NCBI GenBank assembly: GCA_045533335.1 | Contig: JAZSHQ010000057.1 | Span: 33,573 to 97,572, forward strand | Origin: Eubacteriales bacterium | GTDB taxonomy: Bacteria; Bacillota; Clostridia; Oscillospirales; CAG-382 | Direction: 5' to 3' | DNA: 64,000 nt | Shown here: piece after piece, positions 2,754 to 62,122 of the stretch | How positions within the stretch are numbered: the first letter of the stretch is position 1 | Layout: each line of letters opens with the position of its first letter | The notes under the pieces: generated by a model | Databases searched by the model: none | The model's input: the letters and a program-made list of their open reading frames with translations, nothing else | What the model was told of the DNA's origin: nothing | Translations under genes and position numbers: made by a program

Positions 2754-5177
2754 GTGGCAGATAAGAAAAAAAGCAAGACGAATAAAACAAATACCAAAAA
2801 AACATCGGGCTCCAAGCAAAAGGAGATAAAGGTCGACCGTTCGGAAATAATCCGTTGGGCGGTCGGCTTTGTCGCGTTTTATATAATACTTACCTTTTTT
2901 CCGTTTATGAATAACGGCTGGTTCGGAGGCGCGATCTCCTCGTTTTTAAAGGGCCTTTTCGGACCGATGTATTACGTTGTTCCGTTTCTCATACTTATTA
3001 TCGATATTTTGTGGAGCAGAGATCACGAAAACAACGTGGCAAGAATAAAATATCTGCTTTATTTCCTTGAATTCGTGTTCATATCGATAGTTGTGCAGGT
3101 TGCTGTCGCAGGCGGCGACGATATGGCACTGCGCGAGCTTTACCCGAAGGGAATAGAGCTTCAGAGCGCAGGCCTTGTCAGCGGCGCGGTGGCTGTGATG
3201 TTTATAAAGCTTATCGGCGCGACCGCTTCTATGGTGCTTGCGATATTGGGCATATTTATCTGTACCGTGTTGCTTTGCGGAGCAACGCCGAAGGATACAG
3301 TTATGGCGATAGTCAACTATTTCCGCGATGCGGCGGAGCGTGCAAAGGAAGCGCGCGAGGAAGAGCCCGACCCGATTCCCGAGCCTGCACCGAGGCGCAA
3401 AAAGAAGGAAGAGCCCACAGAGGATATTACCGAGCCGCTTCCCGAAGACCCCGCTTCGGATGAAGACGACGATTTTAAAACACTTTTGGAATACGACGCG
3501 AAGAGCGATACCGAAATCGGTGCGGAGCTTCCCGAGGACCCGCAGGCAAATCAGGACGAGCTCCCCTTCGAGCCCGACCCGATTCCCGAAGATATTCCCG
3601 AAACCATACCCGAAATTATAGAAGAAACCGAAGACGAAGAGCTTTGTTTAGAGCCTGTCGAAGACACCCCCTACGTGTTCCCGCCCATATCTTTGCTTAC
3701 GGCAGATACCGCTAACGGTGCGGGCGGCCCTACGGGAGCGGAGGTCGAGCGCACCAGCCGTAAATTGGAAGAGGTGCTTGCAAGCTTCAACGTTAAGGCA
3801 AAGGTGGTTAATTCCACCTACGGTCCTACCGTTACCCGCTACGAGCTTCAGCCTGAAACGGGTGTAAGAGTAAAGGCGATAGCAAACCTTTCCGAGGATA
3901 TCGCGCTTCACCTTGCGGCAACGGCGGTAAGAATAGAAAATATTCCCGGCAAGGCGGCGGTGGGTGTTGAAATACCGAACAAATCCACCTCGACCGTGCG
4001 TTTGCGCGGGCTTATCGATAACCCCGTCTTCCGCGAGAATAAGAGCAGACTTTTCTGCGCGCTCGGCGAAGACGTTGCGGGTAGCCCCGTTTATCTCGAT
4101 ATTGCGAAAATGCCCCACCTTCTCGTTGCAGGCGCAACGGGTCAGGGTAAATCGGTGTGCATTAACTCGCTTATTATCTCTCTGCTTTACCGCAACCACC
4201 CCAACGACGTAAAGCTTATACTTATCGACCCGAAAACGGTTGAATTTTCGGACTATAAGGATATTCCGCATCTTTTGGTGCCGGTTATCAACGATCCTAA
4301 GAATGCGGCGGGTACGCTTAATTGGGCGTGCACCGAAATGGAAAACCGTTACAGACTTATTCAAGAAGTCGGCGCGCGCGACCTTATGGGCTATAACAAC
4401 GCGGTCGCAAACGACCCCGAGCGTGCACTCCTTCCTCAGATAGTTATTTTCATCGACGAGTTTGCCGATTTGATGATGACGGCACCCGACGACGTTGAAA
4501 CCTCGGTTTGCCGCCTTGCACAAAAGGCGCGTGCGGCGGGCATACATCTTGTTATCGGTACTCAAAGACCTTCGGTAGACGTTATTACCGGTCTTATCAA
4601 GGCAAACATTCCCTCGCGTATCGCGTTGACCACCACCTCGGCGGTCGACTCGCGTACGATTTTGGATATGACGGGCGCGGAAAAGCTGCTCGGTAAGGGC
4701 GATATGCTTTATTACCCCGTCGGTGCGATGAAGCCTTTGCGTGTTCAGGGCGCGTTTGTCGACGGTAAGGGCGAGGTTGCCGCTGTGACCCAGTTTATAA
4801 AGGAAGCGGCTCACGCACAGTACGACGAAAGTATTATGCAGCAGATCGAGCAGGAAGCAAAGCTTTGCGGTATGAAGGGCAAGAAGGGCGCAGCCGCGGC
4901 AGAAGCTTCGGACGACGGCGACGACAAGACCGACCCGATGTTTATGGATGCAATAGAGGTCGCAATAGAGTGCGGCACGGTTTCCACCTCTTTGCTTCAG
5001 CGCAGACTTTCGCTCGGCTATGCACGCGCGGCGAGAATTATCGATAAAATGGAACGCCGCGGCTTTATCGGCGAGTTCGATGCCGCAACCAAAAAGCGCA
5101 GTATCCTTATCACGCGCGAACAGTTTGCCGAATTAAAGCTTAACGGAGAGGGCAAGAAGGAGGATAGCGATGCGTAA
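2754..5177 (+). CDS. ftsK: DNA translocase FtsK/SpoIIIE
   Basis: GTG start after AAAGGAG. N-terminal TM segments, acidic/proline linker, Walker A GATGQGKS, and a C-terminal gamma winged-helix (LLQRRLSLGYARAARIID). Confidence 0.93.
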   Translation: MADKKKSKTNKTNTKKTSGSKQKEIKVDRSEIIRWAVGFVAFYIILTFFPFMNNGWFGGAISSFLKGLFGPMYYVVPFLILIIDILWSRDHENNVARIKYLLYFLEFVFISIVVQVAVAGGDDMALRELYPKGIELQSAGLVSGAVAVMFIKLIGATASMVLAILGIFICTVLLCGATPKDTVMAIVNYFRDAAERAKEAREEEPDPIPEPAPRRKKKEEPTEDITEPLPEDPASDEDDDFKTLLEYDAKSDTEIGAELPEDPQANQDELPFEPDPIPEDIPETIPEIIEETEDEELCLEPVEDTPYVFPPISLLTADTANGAGGPTGAEVERTSRKLEEVLASFNVKAKVVNSTYGPTVTRYELQPETGVRVKAIANLSEDIALHLAATAVRIENIPGKAAVGVEIPNKSTSTVRLRGLIDNPVFRENKSRLFCALGEDVAGSPVYLDIAKMPHLLVAGATGQGKSVCINSLIISLLYRNHPNDVKLILIDPKTVEFSDYKDIPHLLVPVINDPKNAAGTLNWACTEMENRYRLIQEVGARDLMGYNNAVANDPERALLPQIVIFIDEFADLMMTAPDDVETSVCRLAQKARAAGIHLVIGTQRPSVDVITGLIKANIPSRIALTTTSAVDSRTILDMTGAEKLLGKGDMLYYPVGAMKPLRVQGAFVDGKGEVAAVTQFIKEAAHAQYDESIMQQIEQEAKLCGMKGKKGAAAAEASDDGDDKTDPMFMDAIEVAIECGTVSTSLLQRRLSLGYARAARIIDKMERRGFIGEFDAATKKRSILITREQFAELKLNGEGKKEDSDA

Positions 5178-5589
5178 ATATCTGTTAACCGCGTTGCTCT
5201 TACTCTGCCTTTTGCTTTCTGCCTGCTCGAGCGCGAACGAATATAAGCTCACCTATACCTCCGACGGAAGCAGTAATATCGAATATATTTATTACGATGA
5301 TGAACGCGTGGTATATGTTGTCGGCGGTTTGATGATGGCAGAGGTCGACGGCAGCTCAAAGATGCTTGAAATGGCGTTGAAAGAGGGCGATATAACCGTT
5401 TCGGATATCCTCGCTTCGGCGGAAAAGGATGCCGAAAACGGCGATCTCCCGGTTAACACCTATCCCGACGGAAGCAAGGATTACCGCTACGAAGGCTTTA
5501 CGCTGGTGTCGCTGAATACCCACCTCGGCAACCGCGATATATATTTCGTTCCCGCAGGAATGGGATATTACGATGTGACGAATTCGTAA
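5170..5589 (+). CDS. hypothetical lipoprotein
   Basis: Signal peptide with lipobox LLSAC. Overlaps the ftsK stop by 8 nt. Confidence 0.6.
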   Translation: MRKYLLTALLLLCLLLSACSSANEYKLTYTSDGSSNIEYIYYDDERVVYVVGGLMMAEVDGSSKMLEMALKEGDITVSDILASAEKDAENGDLPVNTYPDGSKDYRYEGFTLVSLNTHLGNRDIYFVPAGMGYYDVTNS

Positions 5590-6581: not shown

Positions 6582-6950
6582 ATGAAACGCCGATTTATTG
6601 ATATATTTCTCGATATATTAAAGGCGATCTATATCGCCGCGCTCGTTGTGCCTTCGGCGTTTTTGTTTTACCGCGCAACAGAATCGCACCTTTACGATAT
6701 CGCGCATCTCGGCGACGAAGGCTATCACAGCGGCTTGGGGCTTTTGGTGTTTCTTTCGGTATTGTTTTTAATATTCGTCGGCTTGTGCGTCCTTTTGCTT
6801 ATCGGGCTTGCGATACTTATAACGCGGTTTAGTACCACGCAAAGAAAGAAAAGCCACACGCGTTTTTTCCTTTGGCTTCTGCTCGCCCCGCCCGCAAACG
6901 TGTTTACCTACGTTATCGCAACGGTTTTAATGCTTTCAATTCTAAAATAA
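6582..6950 (+). CDS. hypothetical membrane protein
   Basis: 122 aa with 3-4 TM helices, tightly spaced after the preceding gene. Confidence 0.5.
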   Translation: MKRRFIDIFLDILKAIYIAALVVPSAFLFYRATESHLYDIAHLGDEGYHSGLGLLVFLSVLFLIFVGLCVLLLIGLAILITRFSTTQRKKSHTRFFLWLLLAPPANVFTYVIATVLMLSILK

Positions 6951-9000: not shown

Positions 9001-9035
9001 AGATAAAAGATAAAAGATAATAGATAATAGATATT
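9001..9035. repeat. tandem heptamer (AGATAAW) x5
   Basis: agataaa agataaa agataat agataat agatatt, 21 nt upstream of the tcdA start. Confidence 0.85.
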
Positions 9036-37025: not shown

Positions 37026-37116
37026 TGGCGGAGAAGGTGGGATTCGAACCCACGAACGGTTTTATCCGTTACACGATTTCCAATCGTGCGCCCTCGACCA
37101 GCTAAGCGACTTCTCC
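37026..37116 (-). tRNA. tRNA-Ser (anticodon GGA), class II, CCA encoded
   Basis: Manual cloverleaf: acceptor GGAGAAG/CTTCTCC, anticodon arm CACGA-TTGGAAA-TCGTG, long variable arm AACGG..CCGTT, T arm GTGGG-TTCGAAT-CCCAC. Confidence 0.93.
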
Positions 37117-38369: not shown

Positions 38370-38376
38370 AAAAATG

Positions 38377-38440
38377 TTGAGAGAAAAACTTTTTGCATAA
38401 AGTTTTTCTCTCAAACTTTCTTTTCAAAAACTTTAATATT
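38377..38440 (-). repeat. family 3 palindromic terminator-like element (inverted orientation)
   Basis: 16-bp perfect stem 38377-38392/38399-38414. The reverse complement aligns with the copies at 53695 and 62059. Confidence 0.75.
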
Positions 38441-38511
38441 GATTTCTTTGAAGATTTTTACGCGGGGTTTGAGGCGAAGCCTCAAGCCTATTTTTGTGCG
38501 TTCAAGAAAAA

Positions 38512-51157: not shown

Positions 51158-51835
51158 ATGCCCGAGTCCGATAAAGACAAGTCTGCTTACGGCCACCGTA
51201 AGCGTTTAAAGGAAAAACTGCTTTCATCGGGTGCTTCGAATATGTCGGATGCCGATATTATCGAAATGCTTCTCTTCTATATCGTCCCGCGTAAGGATTG
51301 CAGGGCGGTTGCCGAAGCGCTTGTTGAAAAATACGGCACGCTCGAAGCGGTTATTGCCGCCGACCCGCGTGAGCTTAAGGAGTTTAAATACCTTAAAGAC
51401 GGCGCGGAGGTGCTTTTCACCCTCCTCGGCGAGGTTGTTAAGCGCGCCTCGATTATCGAAGGCGACCGCAGTATGCTCGAAGGCGATAGGTTAAAAATCT
51501 ATCTTCTCGAAATATTTAAGGATAAGGAAGCCGAAACCGTTTATGCGCTTTATTTTGCAGAGGACGGAAGCTATCTCGGTAAGCAGGTCATACACAGAGG
51601 CAATATAAGCAGTGCGCGGTTTTCGTTACGCACGGTGACAGAGGGCGTTATTCGCATCGGCGGTAAATCGGTCGTGCTGGCGCATAACCACCCAAGCGAT
51701 ATGCTTGTTCCCTCGGGCGACGATATTATTTCGACAAAACGCATCGCGGCGCACCTTGCCGCGAACGATATCGACCTTATCGACCATTACATCGTCGGCA
51801 AAGACGACGCGGTAAGTATTTTTAAGGCGAAATAG
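51158..51835 (+). CDS. radC: RadC-like JAB domain protein
   Basis: N-terminal HRKRLKEK plus JAMM motif LAHNHPSD. Starts 2 nt after the ackA stop. Confidence 0.85.
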   Translation: MPESDKDKSAYGHRKRLKEKLLSSGASNMSDADIIEMLLFYIVPRKDCRAVAEALVEKYGTLEAVIAADPRELKEFKYLKDGAEVLFTLLGEVVKRASIIEGDRSMLEGDRLKIYLLEIFKDKEAETVYALYFAEDGSYLGKQVIHRGNISSARFSLRTVTEGVIRIGGKSVVLAHNHPSDMLVPSGDDIISTKRIAAHLAANDIDLIDHYIVGKDDAVSIFKAK

Positions 51836-51840
51836 AGCGC

Positions 51841-51932
51841 GAGTTATGAACTATGAGTTATGAGTGAGCAACGCTTGGAAACAAGCTCATAACGATTAGC
51901 GCAAGCTAATCCCATAACTCTAAACTGATAAC
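51841..51932 (+). ncRNA. structured intergenic element, family 2, copy 1 (candidate 3'-UTR or small RNA)
   Basis: GAGTTAT-type heptamers (51841-51868). Hairpins GCTTG-GAAA-CAAGC (51873-51886) and GATTAGC-GCAA-GCTAATC (51894-51911). 3' block CCATAACTCTAAACTGATAAC. Confidence 0.45.
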
Positions 51933-51935
51933 AAA

Positions 51936-51966
51936 AAAAGAGCGAACGCTGCGTTCGCTCTTTTGC
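51936..51966. terminator. bidirectional intrinsic terminator
   Basis: AAAAAAAGAGCGAACG-ctg-CGTTCGCTCTTTT. Confidence 0.8.
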
Positions 51967-56450: not shown

Positions 56451-57305
56451 ATGAAAAAACTTATTTCCTTGGCTTTGATCGCTTTAATGCTTTTAACCTG
56501 CTTGCCCTTGTGCGCCTTTTCCGAGGAAGAGGAAGCGCTTACCGTTATCGCCTTTGGCGACAGCATTACCGCGGCGGATAAATGGCAAAAGCATATCGAA
56601 AGCAAGCTCGGTATCGATATAATCAACGCGGGCGTCGGCGGCGATACCACGAACAGCGCAAAGGCGCGCTTTAAAAAGGACGTGCTCGATAAATCGCCCG
56701 ATATCGTGCTTATAAGCTTGGGCGTTAACGACTGCGCGATAGATATGGCGCGCTACGTAACGCTTGAGAATTACAAGGCGAATATGGCTTATTTTATCGA
56801 CGAATGCAAAAAAATCGGGGCAAAGGTTATAGTAAATATCCCCACCCCCGTTGTCGACGAGCAATATCTTACCCGCCACGAAGCCGCACCCTTCGAGCCC
56901 TACGGCGGCCCGAACGGTATTGTTGCTATCTATGCCGAGGCTTGCCGCGAGGTCGCGCGCGAAAAGAACGTTGTTTTTGCCGATATTAACGCCGCTTTTC
57001 TTGCAACCGACGATTATACCAAATATTTCCCCGACGGCGTTCACCCCAACGATACGGGATATAAAATGTATGCCGAAGCGGTGCTTGATATATACGAGCG
57101 CCTTTGGCTCGGCGATATTAACGACGACGGCGCGGTCGACCAGTATGATTACATTCTTGTAAGGCGTCAGTATTTCGAAACGATTTCGCTTGACGAAAAG
57201 CAGTTAAAGCGCGCCGACGCGAATTGCGACGGAAGTGTAGATCAGTACGATTACGTTCTTGTAAAACGCGCGTATTTCGAAACCTATACCCTTTTGGGCA
57301 AGTAA
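56451..57305 (+). CDS. secreted SGNH/GDSL esterase with C-terminal type I dockerin
   Basis: Signal peptide, GDSIT block, DGVHPN block, and two dockerin repeats (GDINDDGAVDQYDY, DANCDGSVDQYDY). Confidence 0.88.
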   Translation: MKKLISLALIALMLLTCLPLCAFSEEEEALTVIAFGDSITAADKWQKHIESKLGIDIINAGVGGDTTNSAKARFKKDVLDKSPDIVLISLGVNDCAIDMARYVTLENYKANMAYFIDECKKIGAKVIVNIPTPVVDEQYLTRHEAAPFEPYGGPNGIVAIYAEACREVAREKNVVFADINAAFLATDDYTKYFPDGVHPNDTGYKMYAEAVLDIYERLWLGDINDDGAVDQYDYILVRRQYFETISLDEKQLKRADANCDGSVDQYDYVLVKRAYFETYTLLGK

Positions 57306-57307
57306 TT

Positions 57308-57411
57308 TGAGTTATGAGTTATGAGTTATGAGTTATGAGTTATGATTGGCTTTGCCAAGTTATTAGTTTATAACGCTTGCGCAAGCAAGCTCGTAACTCT
57401 AAACTCATAAC
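57308..57411 (+). ncRNA. structured intergenic element, family 2, copy 2
   Basis: (GAGTTAT)x5 at 57308-57342. Hairpins TTGGC-ttt-GCCAA (57345-57357) and GCTTGC-GCAA-GCAAGC (57374-57389). 3' block GTAACTCTAAACTCATAACT is complementary to the heptamers. Confidence 0.45.
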
Positions 57412-57412
57412 T

Positions 57413-57443
57413 AAAAAAGAGCTGTGTAACAACAGCTCTTTTT
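57413..57443. terminator. bidirectional intrinsic terminator
   Basis: AAAAAAGAGCTGT-gtaacaa-ACAGCTCTTTTT. Confidence 0.8.
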
Positions 57444-58084: not shown

Positions 58085-58228
58085 GGGCGCAAAAACACGG
58101 CAAAACGCCGTAAATGCATCTTCTTTTATCCGGACTTTGACCGTTGGTTTCGGAATTTCACCGAATCTTGCATAACGCTCGCGGACTTTACCGCCAATCG
58201 GGAATTGCACCCTGCCCCGAAGATATAT
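58085..58228 (-). ncRNA. FMN riboswitch (RFN element) with terminator expression platform
   Basis: Minus strand reads CTTCGGGGCAGGGTGCAATTCCCGATTGGCGGTAAAGTCCGCGAGC...GGTGAAATTCCGAAACCAACGGTCAAAGTCCGGATAAAAGAAG, followed by ACGGC-gtttt-GCCGTGTTTTT. Confidence 0.9.
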
Positions 58229-62058: not shown

Positions 62059-62122
62059 TTATTAAAGGTTTTTGAAAAGAGAGTTCGAGGGAAAAACTTT
62101 TTGCAAAAAGTTTTTCCCTCGA
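62059..62122 (+). repeat. family 3 palindromic terminator-like element
   Basis: 15-bp stem GAGGGAAAAACTTTT/AAAAGTTTTTCCCTC with conserved 5' flank TTATTAAAGGTTTTTGAAAAGAGAG. Confidence 0.75.

Follow-up and report, generated by a model that had tools for sequence, protein, structure and literature searches.

The DNA just downstream of radC in the window, by which we mean the whole 64,000-nt stretch of Clostridial DNA analyzed here, carries a run of heptamers, two small hairpins, and a block complementary to the heptamers, and it raises the question of whether such an element is an RNA kept for the sake of the gene that it follows or a piece of DNA that arrived there by another route. An earlier note had described a heptamer run, two GNRA-capped hairpins, and a complementary 3′ block at this place, and had taken them for a folded RNA rather than a plain terminator. 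The sequence is as described there; what it represents was approached through the second copy in the window, the same sites in relatives, and the occurrence of the element elsewhere.

Layout and predicted folding of the two copies

Direct sequence inspection placed copy 1 at positions 51841 to 51932 and confirmed the related element that had been noticed 5.4 kb away, copy 2, at 57309 to 57412. In each copy, a run of GAGTTAT units and a block of ATAACTC words complementary to it enclose two small GC hairpins, all given here on the plus strand, and each copy is followed by its own separate canonical terminator. The G-arm of copy 1 (51841 to 51868; GAGTTAT GAACTAT GAGTTAT GAGTGAG) starts 5 nt past the stop codon of radC (TAG, 51833 to 51835). 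It leads to mini-hairpin 1 (51873 to 51886; GCTTG-GAAA-CAAGC), a C-type unit with TCATAAC after it, and this internal anti-heptamer (51887 to 51893) is followed by mini-hairpin 2 (51894 to 51911; GATTAGC-GCAA-GCTAATC) and the C-arm (51912 to 51932; CCATAAC TCTAAAC TGATAAC), the complement of the G-arm, with which it would make the closing helix. Outside the repeat, an intrinsic bidirectional terminator (51933 to 51964; A-run, a 9-bp GC stem of GAGCGAACG/CGTTCGCTC, and T-run) is common to radC and a convergent sigma-70-like gene.

Copy 2 likewise lies between convergent genes, namely, a GDSL-dockerin esterase gene and an FMN-riboswitch-controlled ECF-S/RibU gene, and starts 3 nt past the stop codon of the former (TAA, 57303 to 57305). 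Its G-arm (57309 to 57345) comprises five perfect GAGTTAT units (57309 to 57343) plus GA, compared with four heptamers in copy 1. The G-type mini-hairpin (57346 to 57358; TTGGC-TTT-GCCAA) forms the unit GTTATGA-hairpin-GTTAT, and this exact module is also present in metagenome loci (e.g., L131 and L137). Past the centre (57359 to 57374; GTTATTAGTTTATAAC) lie a C-type mini-hairpin (57375 to 57390; GCTTGC-GCAA-GCAAGC), with near-identical units in L062 (GAAA loop) and L135, and the C-arm (57391 to 57412; TCGTAAC TCTAAAC TCATAAC T). The bidirectional terminator that follows (57413 to 57443; AAAAAA-GAGCTGT-loop-ACAGCTC-TTTTT) is again context. Within the window, both copies are thus located upstream of the terminator of a plus-strand gene.

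The two copies align with 80% column identity and have ordered blocks in common, and allowing up to one mismatch, GAGTTATGAG occurs 11 times in the window versus 1.9 times expected, all but one of these occurrences being inside the two elements. Three other ways of dividing up the sequence were rejected. The mini-hairpins are not independent repeats of the window, being found only inside the two elements. The terminator, whose common AAAAAGAGC start had prompted its consideration as part of the element, occurs without the element in a relative (L210), which agrees with its description as a separate feature in the earlier note; terminators like those after the copies also occur elsewhere in the window. 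Finally, supposed UUCG tetraloops turned out to be TTC triloops on 6-bp stems.

Both copies are predicted to fold into a three-way junction closed by a helix of heptamers and anti-heptamers, with z scores of −4.6 for copy 1 and −7.9 for copy 2 relative to dinucleotide shuffles. This predicted pairing joins the G-arm to the C-arm in either copy, the arms being complementary heptamer runs and, hence, terminal inverted repeats. Because the heptamers repeat, the closing helix is possible in several registers. GNRA loops cap both hairpins of copy 1, whereas in copy 2 one hairpin ends in a GCAA loop and the other in a UUU triloop. The stem of the element ends in ...GATAAC/AAAAAAA in copy 1 and in ...CATAACT/AAAAAA in copy 2 and, unlike that of an intrinsic terminator, has no U-tract after it.

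Insertion beside existing terminators and the wider repeat family

No exact matches to the RadC and GDSL proteins of the window were found, and syntenic contigs of relatives were reached through homologues of RadC and RibU instead. Compared with a relative whose RibU is 94% identical (L210; alignment A2), copy 2 is a clean indel of ~103 nt with the same terminator in both sequences: the empty site reads TAA, AACAC, AAAAAGAGCTGT, and the window reads TAA, TTT, the 103 nt, AAAAAAGAGCTGT. The terminator at 57413 to 57443 is the right edge of the insertion and is orthologous to that of L210, which there directly follows the stop codon. No target-site duplication was seen at the copy 2 site in this alignment. 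Loci L215 to L217 show a 42-bp gap at the same site. The radC site, in turn, measures only 45 to 47 bp, made up of stop codon and terminator, in L119, L120, and L121 (RadC 84 to 85% identical). In L118 (RadC 96% identical) it holds a different insert of 150 nt, which belongs to a second repeat family that is also present in the window at 38376 to 38455 and 62068 to 62122. No copy of the heptamer element was found in ~110 kb of syntenic relatives. Given the varied small inserts at these sites, the gap between stop codon and terminator is a hot spot for small insertions, of which the present element is one. The element therefore came in as inserted DNA, in the space separating a stop codon from an intrinsic terminator that was already there, and copies 1 and 2 are not conserved gene-linked RNAs; the absence from relatives that the earlier note had set as a refutation of its reading is what the orthologous sites show. 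This removes a false lead, in that radC and the GDSL esterase gene carry a recent insertion and not a dedicated regulatory RNA.

Sibling copies in Clostridia came from a scan of genome collections with the pattern GAGTTATGA...TAACTCTAAAC, as in L062, where stop codon, element, and terminator follow one another. When metagenomes were scanned with the 25-nt module of copy 2 (GTTATGA-TTGSC-N3-5-GSCAA-GTTAT), 81 loci were retrieved from rumen and gut assemblies, with essentially none expected by chance. As the earlier note had supposed, the copies are thus related beyond their heptamers and are members of a real family. Its units are 7-nt GAGTTAT/GTTATGA words on the left and their complements ATAACTC/TCATAAC on the right, set among GC mini-hairpins of 13 to 18 nt, and its plan can be written as [GTTATGA/GTTTAGA/ACTATGA + mini-hairpin]n, centre, [mini-hairpin + TCATAAC]n, TCTAAAC TCATAAC. 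Since composition is highly variable and modular across loci, with variable unit numbers, we analyzed the family by unit-level statistics and a subfamily alignment rather than by a covariance model of the two copies. Heptamers of the G type precede those of the C type in essentially all complete copies. Perfect hairpins of at least 5 bp follow 51% of exact GTTATGA heptamers versus 1.9% of random positions, and their stem sequences vary, yet the pairing stays Watson-Crick; in L167, L185, and L187, hairpins are nested within the loops of other hairpins. The position is almost exclusively at gene 3′ ends: elements adjoin terminators, on either side, several start at or across the upstream stop codon, and, of 37 Clostridial copies placed by crude ORF calls, 22 have convergent neighboring genes, 14 tandem ones, and 1 divergent ones. 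Since a stop codon is present in all heptamer variants, an array blocks every reading frame. As side observations, only the G orientation allows stems extended by G-U pairs (U-G/G-U in 12 to 13 of 15 sequences), and in six of seven tandem contexts the GTTATGA of one-sided arrays has the same sense as the flanking genes.

Searches against known elements returned little. Neither the window nor 38 related loci had an Rfam match at the gathering score, and permissive E values up to 10 gave only terminator-driven noise. There was no phage match, the 25-nt module had no viral matches, and the arm pattern had three (approximately the estimated chance level). BLAST against plasmids returned only another heptamer hairpin, located after hflX in a Bacteroides plasmid. 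A tblastn search of 1.27 Mb of loci for a Y1 transposase, a weak test with an IS608 TnpA query, found none, and no parent IS with matching ends was found; the copies themselves do have inverted arms. The family is large and is missed by annotation pipelines and Rfam, and it probably breaks assemblies.

Related hairpins extend beyond Clostridia. The genome-collection scan retrieved at least 117 loci versus ~34 estimated by chance, and the matches listed come from Bacteroidota, Cyanobacteria, Nitrospirota, Desulfobacterota, Elusimicrobia, CPR, and Clostridia. Nearly all matches listed are long hairpins in which GAGTTNN-type heptamers are followed by complementary NNAACTC heptamers, and the reverse complement of such a hairpin again has the G-arm first. 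In a set of 37 arrays that had been located without recourse to the search pattern, the complement lies downstream in ~19 and upstream in one, where hairpins stand in tandem; the others are direct arrays on their own. By crude ORF calls, the cross-phylum hairpins among the matches listed occupy 26 convergent, 44 tandem, and 0 divergent contexts; from viral contigs such hairpins are essentially absent. Two related hairpins are located in a 23S-5S spacer (L079) and between tRNAs (L004), positions which imply that they are transcribed and non-terminating. In the 44 tandem-gene contexts among the matches listed, the sense strand folds better in 21 cases and the antisense strand in 23, and the cross-phylum hairpins among the matches listed have 173 G-U pairs in sense versus 167 in antisense. 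Neither comparison reveals a strand bias, and nothing in the cross-phylum hairpins suggests that one RNA strand is under selection.

The Clostridial mini-hairpins point in the same direction. Their stems are nearly always perfect Watson-Crick helices (265 perfect versus 7 with one mismatch), which leaves too few mismatches for a strand test of G-U versus A-C. In the direction from heptamer to hairpin, the loop sequences read TTC (107), TGC (51), TTT (31), TAC (23), TTGC (23), and others, i.e., TNC, and on the TCATAAC strand they become GAA, GCA, GTA, and GCAA, i.e., GNA and GNRA. This polarity explains the GNRA caps in the copies and makes the whole element symmetric under reverse complementation. 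Compensatory changes are found in the hairpins and, in the subfamily alignment, in an 11-bp long-range helix (TATGATYGCC/GGCRATCATA). The GNRA/GNA loops, the G-U-extended stems, and the sense-oriented one-sided arrays hint at a constraint or function at the RNA level. However, the symmetric architecture, the perfect stems, and the equal folding of sense and antisense strands fit better with a palindromic DNA insertion than with selection on one strand of RNA. The proposal of a folded RNA rather than a plain terminator thus survives in its structural part, that is, in the strong and conserved folding potential with its compensatory changes, but not as an RNA tied to these genes.

Association with PF05635 genes

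At several loci, the element adjoins a small gene whose product is PF05635, the 23S rRNA-intervening-sequence (IVS) protein, an S23p/Avd-like four-helix bundle (Pfam, E = 1e-21 to 1e-30), with 2RLD as the closest solved structure. PF05635 is homologous to Avd of diversity-generating retroelements (DGRs) (PMC10053308). The gene forms the loop of a heptamer hairpin in L098, whereas in L038, L068, and L020/L086 it has a G-array on one side and a complete hairpin on the other. It is located within an element, flanked by a 26-nt direct duplication, in L142, and in or beside an element in further relatives (L134, L099, and L230 to L249).

For an unbiased view, 12 PF05635 loci on plasmids were picked through tblastn on the protein alone, from Bacteroidota, Cyanobacteria, Clostridia, Spirochaetota, and Chloroflexota. 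All 12 genes are bracketed by tandem 7-nt arrays whose upstream and downstream copies are reverse complements of each other. The heptamer differs by lineage and includes TAGTGAT, GTCACTG, AATTCAA, GTCGGAG, AATCCCC/AATCGTA, GATGAAG, TTTTAGA, GAAAGTG, and others. An inverted-repeat score of at least 24 was reached by 12/12 of these loci versus 2/113 control genes, and 7-nt periodicity in both flanks by 10/12 versus 0/113. Many of the plasmid genes are wedged within operons, such as between hsdS and hsdR, cas2 and cas1, an RND adaptor and its permease, or a helicase and a methylase.

Rumen Clostridia hold 6,746 PF05635 homologues at E ≤ 1e-20, a cloud of variants that are 82 to 86% identical and mostly located on contigs shorter than 2 kb. 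In all three Clostridial loci that were picked by protein alone, a full mosaic element stands 25 to 40 nt upstream of the start codon. Mosaic arms on both sides of a Clostridial PF05635 gene were looked for and not seen, the whole element being upstream. According to tblastn, the 64-kb window has no PF05635 gene, and its two copies contain no ORF. The link between PF05635 and heptamers is unexpected. Our literature searches on the heptamer strings and on PF05635 together with heptamers retrieved only papers on the Coxiella IVS and on TAACTGA repeats, and no paper generalizing the IVS design beyond rRNA or printing these heptamer strings.

It is tempting to speculate, although we consider it rather doubtful, that heptamer arrays and PF05635 genes each make up half of a single selfish system, widespread and extending well past rRNA. 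A toroidal pentameric protein would then recognize the 7-nt arrays flanking the gene that encodes it, in the form of either RNA or single-stranded DNA and perhaps at one heptamer unit per protein subunit, and pairing of the arms would allow excision of the cassette from any host transcript, so that insertion into operons would be harmless. The ORF-less copies of the window would be non-autonomous satellites and putative binding sites for a protein acting in trans. To our knowledge, S23p/Avd-like proteins have had no known role outside DGRs since the 1990s. If true, such a system would give this orphan family a function and would account for the overabundance of heptanucleotide repeats in Cyanobacteria, Bacteroidota, and others.

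Competing explanations and known systems

How, then, are the two copies best explained? If they were merely local low-complexity sequence, in which heptamer slippage and chance hairpins combine without family or mobility, a variable heptamer number (5 versus 3 to 4 units) would be natural, and in prokaryotes no long simple repeats are more common than heptanucleotide ones (Mrazek 2007, as cited in PMC4679880). This explanation is already contradicted by the ordered blocks at 80% identity, the 81 metagenome loci of a module that chance would essentially never produce, and the clean insertion boundary, and it retains next to no probability. Hairpin clusters have also been proposed as terminators (PMC8355165), and a cluster serving to strengthen or insulate the bidirectional terminator of convergent genes would agree with the position of elements on either side of terminators and with the 22 of 37 Clostridial copies in convergent contexts. 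That relatives terminate with the same terminator alone, that no U-tract follows the stem of the element, and that related hairpins occupy 23S-5S and tRNA-tRNA spacers, where termination would harm, make such an accessory part very improbable. More can be said for a functional 3′-UTR RNA, a three-way junction selected at each locus to stabilize, process, or localize the upstream mRNA: the predicted folding is strong (z = −4.6 and −7.9), the loops are of the GNRA type, the hairpins show compensatory changes, both window copies precede the terminator of a plus-strand gene, and the one-sided arrays are mostly sense-oriented. Yet the element is missing from the orthologous sites of close relatives, the genes preceding the copies are unrelated, the architecture is strand-symmetric without a G-U versus A-C bias, the composition is highly variable and modular, and Rfam families do not match, all of which renders selection of this kind quite unlikely.

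The remaining alternative is also a mobile one. REP/REPIN- or MITE-type repeats are moved by conventional transposases, either RAYT/IS200-like Y1 enzymes acting on single-stranded hairpins or those of an IS with matching ends, and the adjacency of PF05635 might then only reflect common insertion hot spots. A conserved heptamer with a perfect hairpin is reminiscent of GTAG plus REP, inverted arrays are typical of REPINs, and hairpins nest in hairpin loops (L167, L185, and L187). The loops on the TCATAAC strand (GAA, GCA, and GCAA) would suit it as well, since GCGAAGC-type mini-hairpins are said, after work by Hirao et al. in 1992-94, to be exceptionally stable in single-stranded DNA, and the radC site has received inserts from two different repeat families. 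On the other hand, the 1.27 Mb of loci yielded no transposase in the weak test with the TnpA query, the copy 2 site has no target-site duplication, and hot spots alone hardly account for a PF05635 link in 12/12 plus 3/3 loci chosen by protein, with lineage-specific heptamers. A conventional transposase thus seems unlikely.

Considering the insertion, the family membership, the 3′-end position, the strand symmetry, and the PF05635 association together, we think it probable that both copies are ORF-less members of a mosaic palindromic repeat family and relatives of IVS-like cassettes, be it as gene-less relatives or as satellites of them. Because they are located upstream of the terminators, they would be co-transcribed with radC and the GDSL-dockerin gene. 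In the RNA, the G-arm would pair with the C-arm into a long branched stem with the mini-hairpins as branches, of the type that RNase III cleaves in IVSs, and this predicted stem may also block 3′ exonucleases. A consequence at the RNA level, in the form of a 3′-UTR stem, is likely; the copies would have no locus-specific regulatory role. Their heptamer number probably changes through replication slippage. Seen this way, the element joins three loose ends, namely, the heptanucleotide excess, the inverted repeats and heptamers of 23S IVSs, and the S23p/Avd-like proteins.

Among known systems, 23S IVSs come closest in architecture. Those of Coxiella and Leptospira contain an S23p/PF05635 ORF, that of Salmonella does not, and ORF-less IVSs thus exist. 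The Coxiella IVS is a selfish insertion with a 28-bp stem of terminal inverted repeats, an S23p ORF in the loop, and, ahead of the ORF, GACAGAT heptamers that vary in number; it is excised by RNase III and tolerated through this processing out of the RNA, and its S23p protein is a homopentameric toroid (PMC4990558). The window copies resemble it in their terminal inverted repeats, which are predicted to make a long stem, in their variable number of tandem heptamers (four and five, whereas those of the IVS lie beside the ORF), and in having relatives beside or around PF05635 genes. They differ in that they are located in mRNA 3′ UTRs rather than in rRNA (helix 25/45 of 23S in the case of the IVS), lack an ORF, and are mosaics of heptamers and mini-hairpins. 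By analogy, the PF05635 loci outside rRNA look like the same design as the Coxiella IVS.

The mode of life, in turn, resembles that of the REP/BIME/REPIN elements of Enterobacteria and Pseudomonas, which are likewise extragenic multi-copy palindromic units with a short conserved flank, are arranged in mosaic or inverted arrays, are enriched after stop codons and between convergent genes, and are present or absent between close strains. REP/BIME elements stabilize upstream mRNA 3′ ends (Newbury 1987, as cited in PMC12642595). The sequences, however, are not similar, a tandem 7-nt unit of the GTTATGA type takes the place of GTAG as the flank, and the family is associated with PF05635, with no RAYT found in the 1.27 Mb of loci searched with the TnpA query.

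Further parallels are found among intergenic repeats of other phyla. BOX elements of Streptococcus pneumoniae are intergenic, stably folding modules of the form A-(B)n-C with partly complementary ends, and we know of no established mode of mobilization for them and of no link to a protein gene. The window elements have in common with BOX the modular build, the variable number of internal units, the partly complementary ends, and the intergenic position, but their sequence is unrelated and BOX has no heptamer arrays. The SDR of Nostoc, which Elhai reportedly described in 2008, are said to be minute hairpin units which become inserted into repeats and lie nested in one another, as the small units do here, although phylum and sequences are different. 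Direct repeats of the heptamer TAACTGA, of unknown function, occur in Beggiatoaceae, Cyanobacteria, and Bacteroidetes (MacGregor 2015, PMC4679880). Such repeats are also AT-rich 7-nt units with a stop codon, only one base apart from ours (TAACTGA versus TAACTCA), with a patchy distribution across phyla. In contrast, they are direct repeats located mostly just upstream of start codons, and inverted-arm hairpins, mini-hairpins, or a PF05635 link are not reported for them in that study (PMC4679880). By these comparisons, the window elements resemble REP/BIME/REPIN and BOX elements in their mode of life and ORF-less IVSs in their architecture and relatives. The element downstream of radC is a palindromic intergenic insertion, probably related to IVS-like cassettes.

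PF05635 genes between complementary heptamer arrays

Complementary tandem arrays of 7-nt units lie on both sides of genes for PF05635 proteins (23S-IVS S23p/Avd-like four-helix bundles) in 12 of 12 plasmid loci (L218 to L229). These genes are frequently operon-internal, separating hsdS from hsdR, cas2 from cas1, an RND adaptor from its permease, a helicase from a methylase, or DUF1156 from HEPN. At a further locus, L142 (around positions 300 to 890), a mosaic element, i.e., one built of GTTATGA and TCATAAC units with mini-hairpins, is interrupted by a PF05635 gene, and a 26-nt direct duplication, GGCAAACTCATAACTGTAAACTATTA, flanks the gene; this duplication may represent an insertion footprint. 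Rumen and gut assemblies hold thousands of PF05635 variants (P0241 to P0360) with mutual identities of 82 to 86%, and the contigs that carry them are for the most part less than 2 kb long, which is the behavior of a multi-copy, assembly-breaking gene.

Insertions at the radC and RibU/GDSL sites

In L118, the relative whose RadC is 96% identical, the site 3' of radC holds a copy of a second repeat family (2022-2223; blastn, 91% over 80 nt) instead of the heptamer element. This second family consists of a palindrome of the GAGAGAAAAAC...GTTTTTCTCTC type plus flanks, which include a TTTGAGGCGAAGCCTCAAG mini-hairpin, and it also occurs in the window at 38376-38455 and 62068-62122.

The other site, the gap between the GDSL-dockerin esterase gene and the convergent ECF-S/RibU gene, is confirmed as a hot spot because other inserts are present there in the 83% relatives L211 (10598-11385) and L213 (5458-6641), namely, one or two small ORFs (101 to 124 amino acids) and a CCCCTCGG...CCGAGGGG hairpin. 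In the window, the ECF-S/RibU gene, which runs toward copy 2, has an FMN riboswitch upstream (58114-58228, minus strand; 105.7 bits); a tRNA gene lies at 37029-37116, also on the minus strand.

Nested hairpins and related arrays elsewhere

Hairpins nested within the loops of other hairpins were found in five loci (L167, L185, L187, L133, and L197), as in GTTTGC-[ATTTTGGCGAAGCCAAAG]-GCAAAC, and some hairpin loops among these loci carry larger inserts; the loops may themselves be insertion targets. A direct heptamer array in the window, AGATAAA/AGATAAT (4.7 units, 9001-9033), is without a complementary arm in its vicinity.

In Chitinophagaceae and Nitrospirota, GAGTTAT-type hairpins occupy the 23S-5S rRNA spacer and positions between or beside tRNA genes (L079, 368-436; L009, 188-241; L004, 1040-1097; also L072, L081, and L088). 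On the Bacteroides plasmid NZ_CP059407.1, a GAGTTAT/ATAACTC hairpin (L206, 1500-1600) lies immediately 3' of the hflX stop codon, with tandem genes around it. Finally, the Nostocaceae contig L017 carries several long GAGTTAT-type arrays of up to 17 units (1-63, 994-1043, and 6827-6946) on both sides of a CRISPR array (3055-5216).
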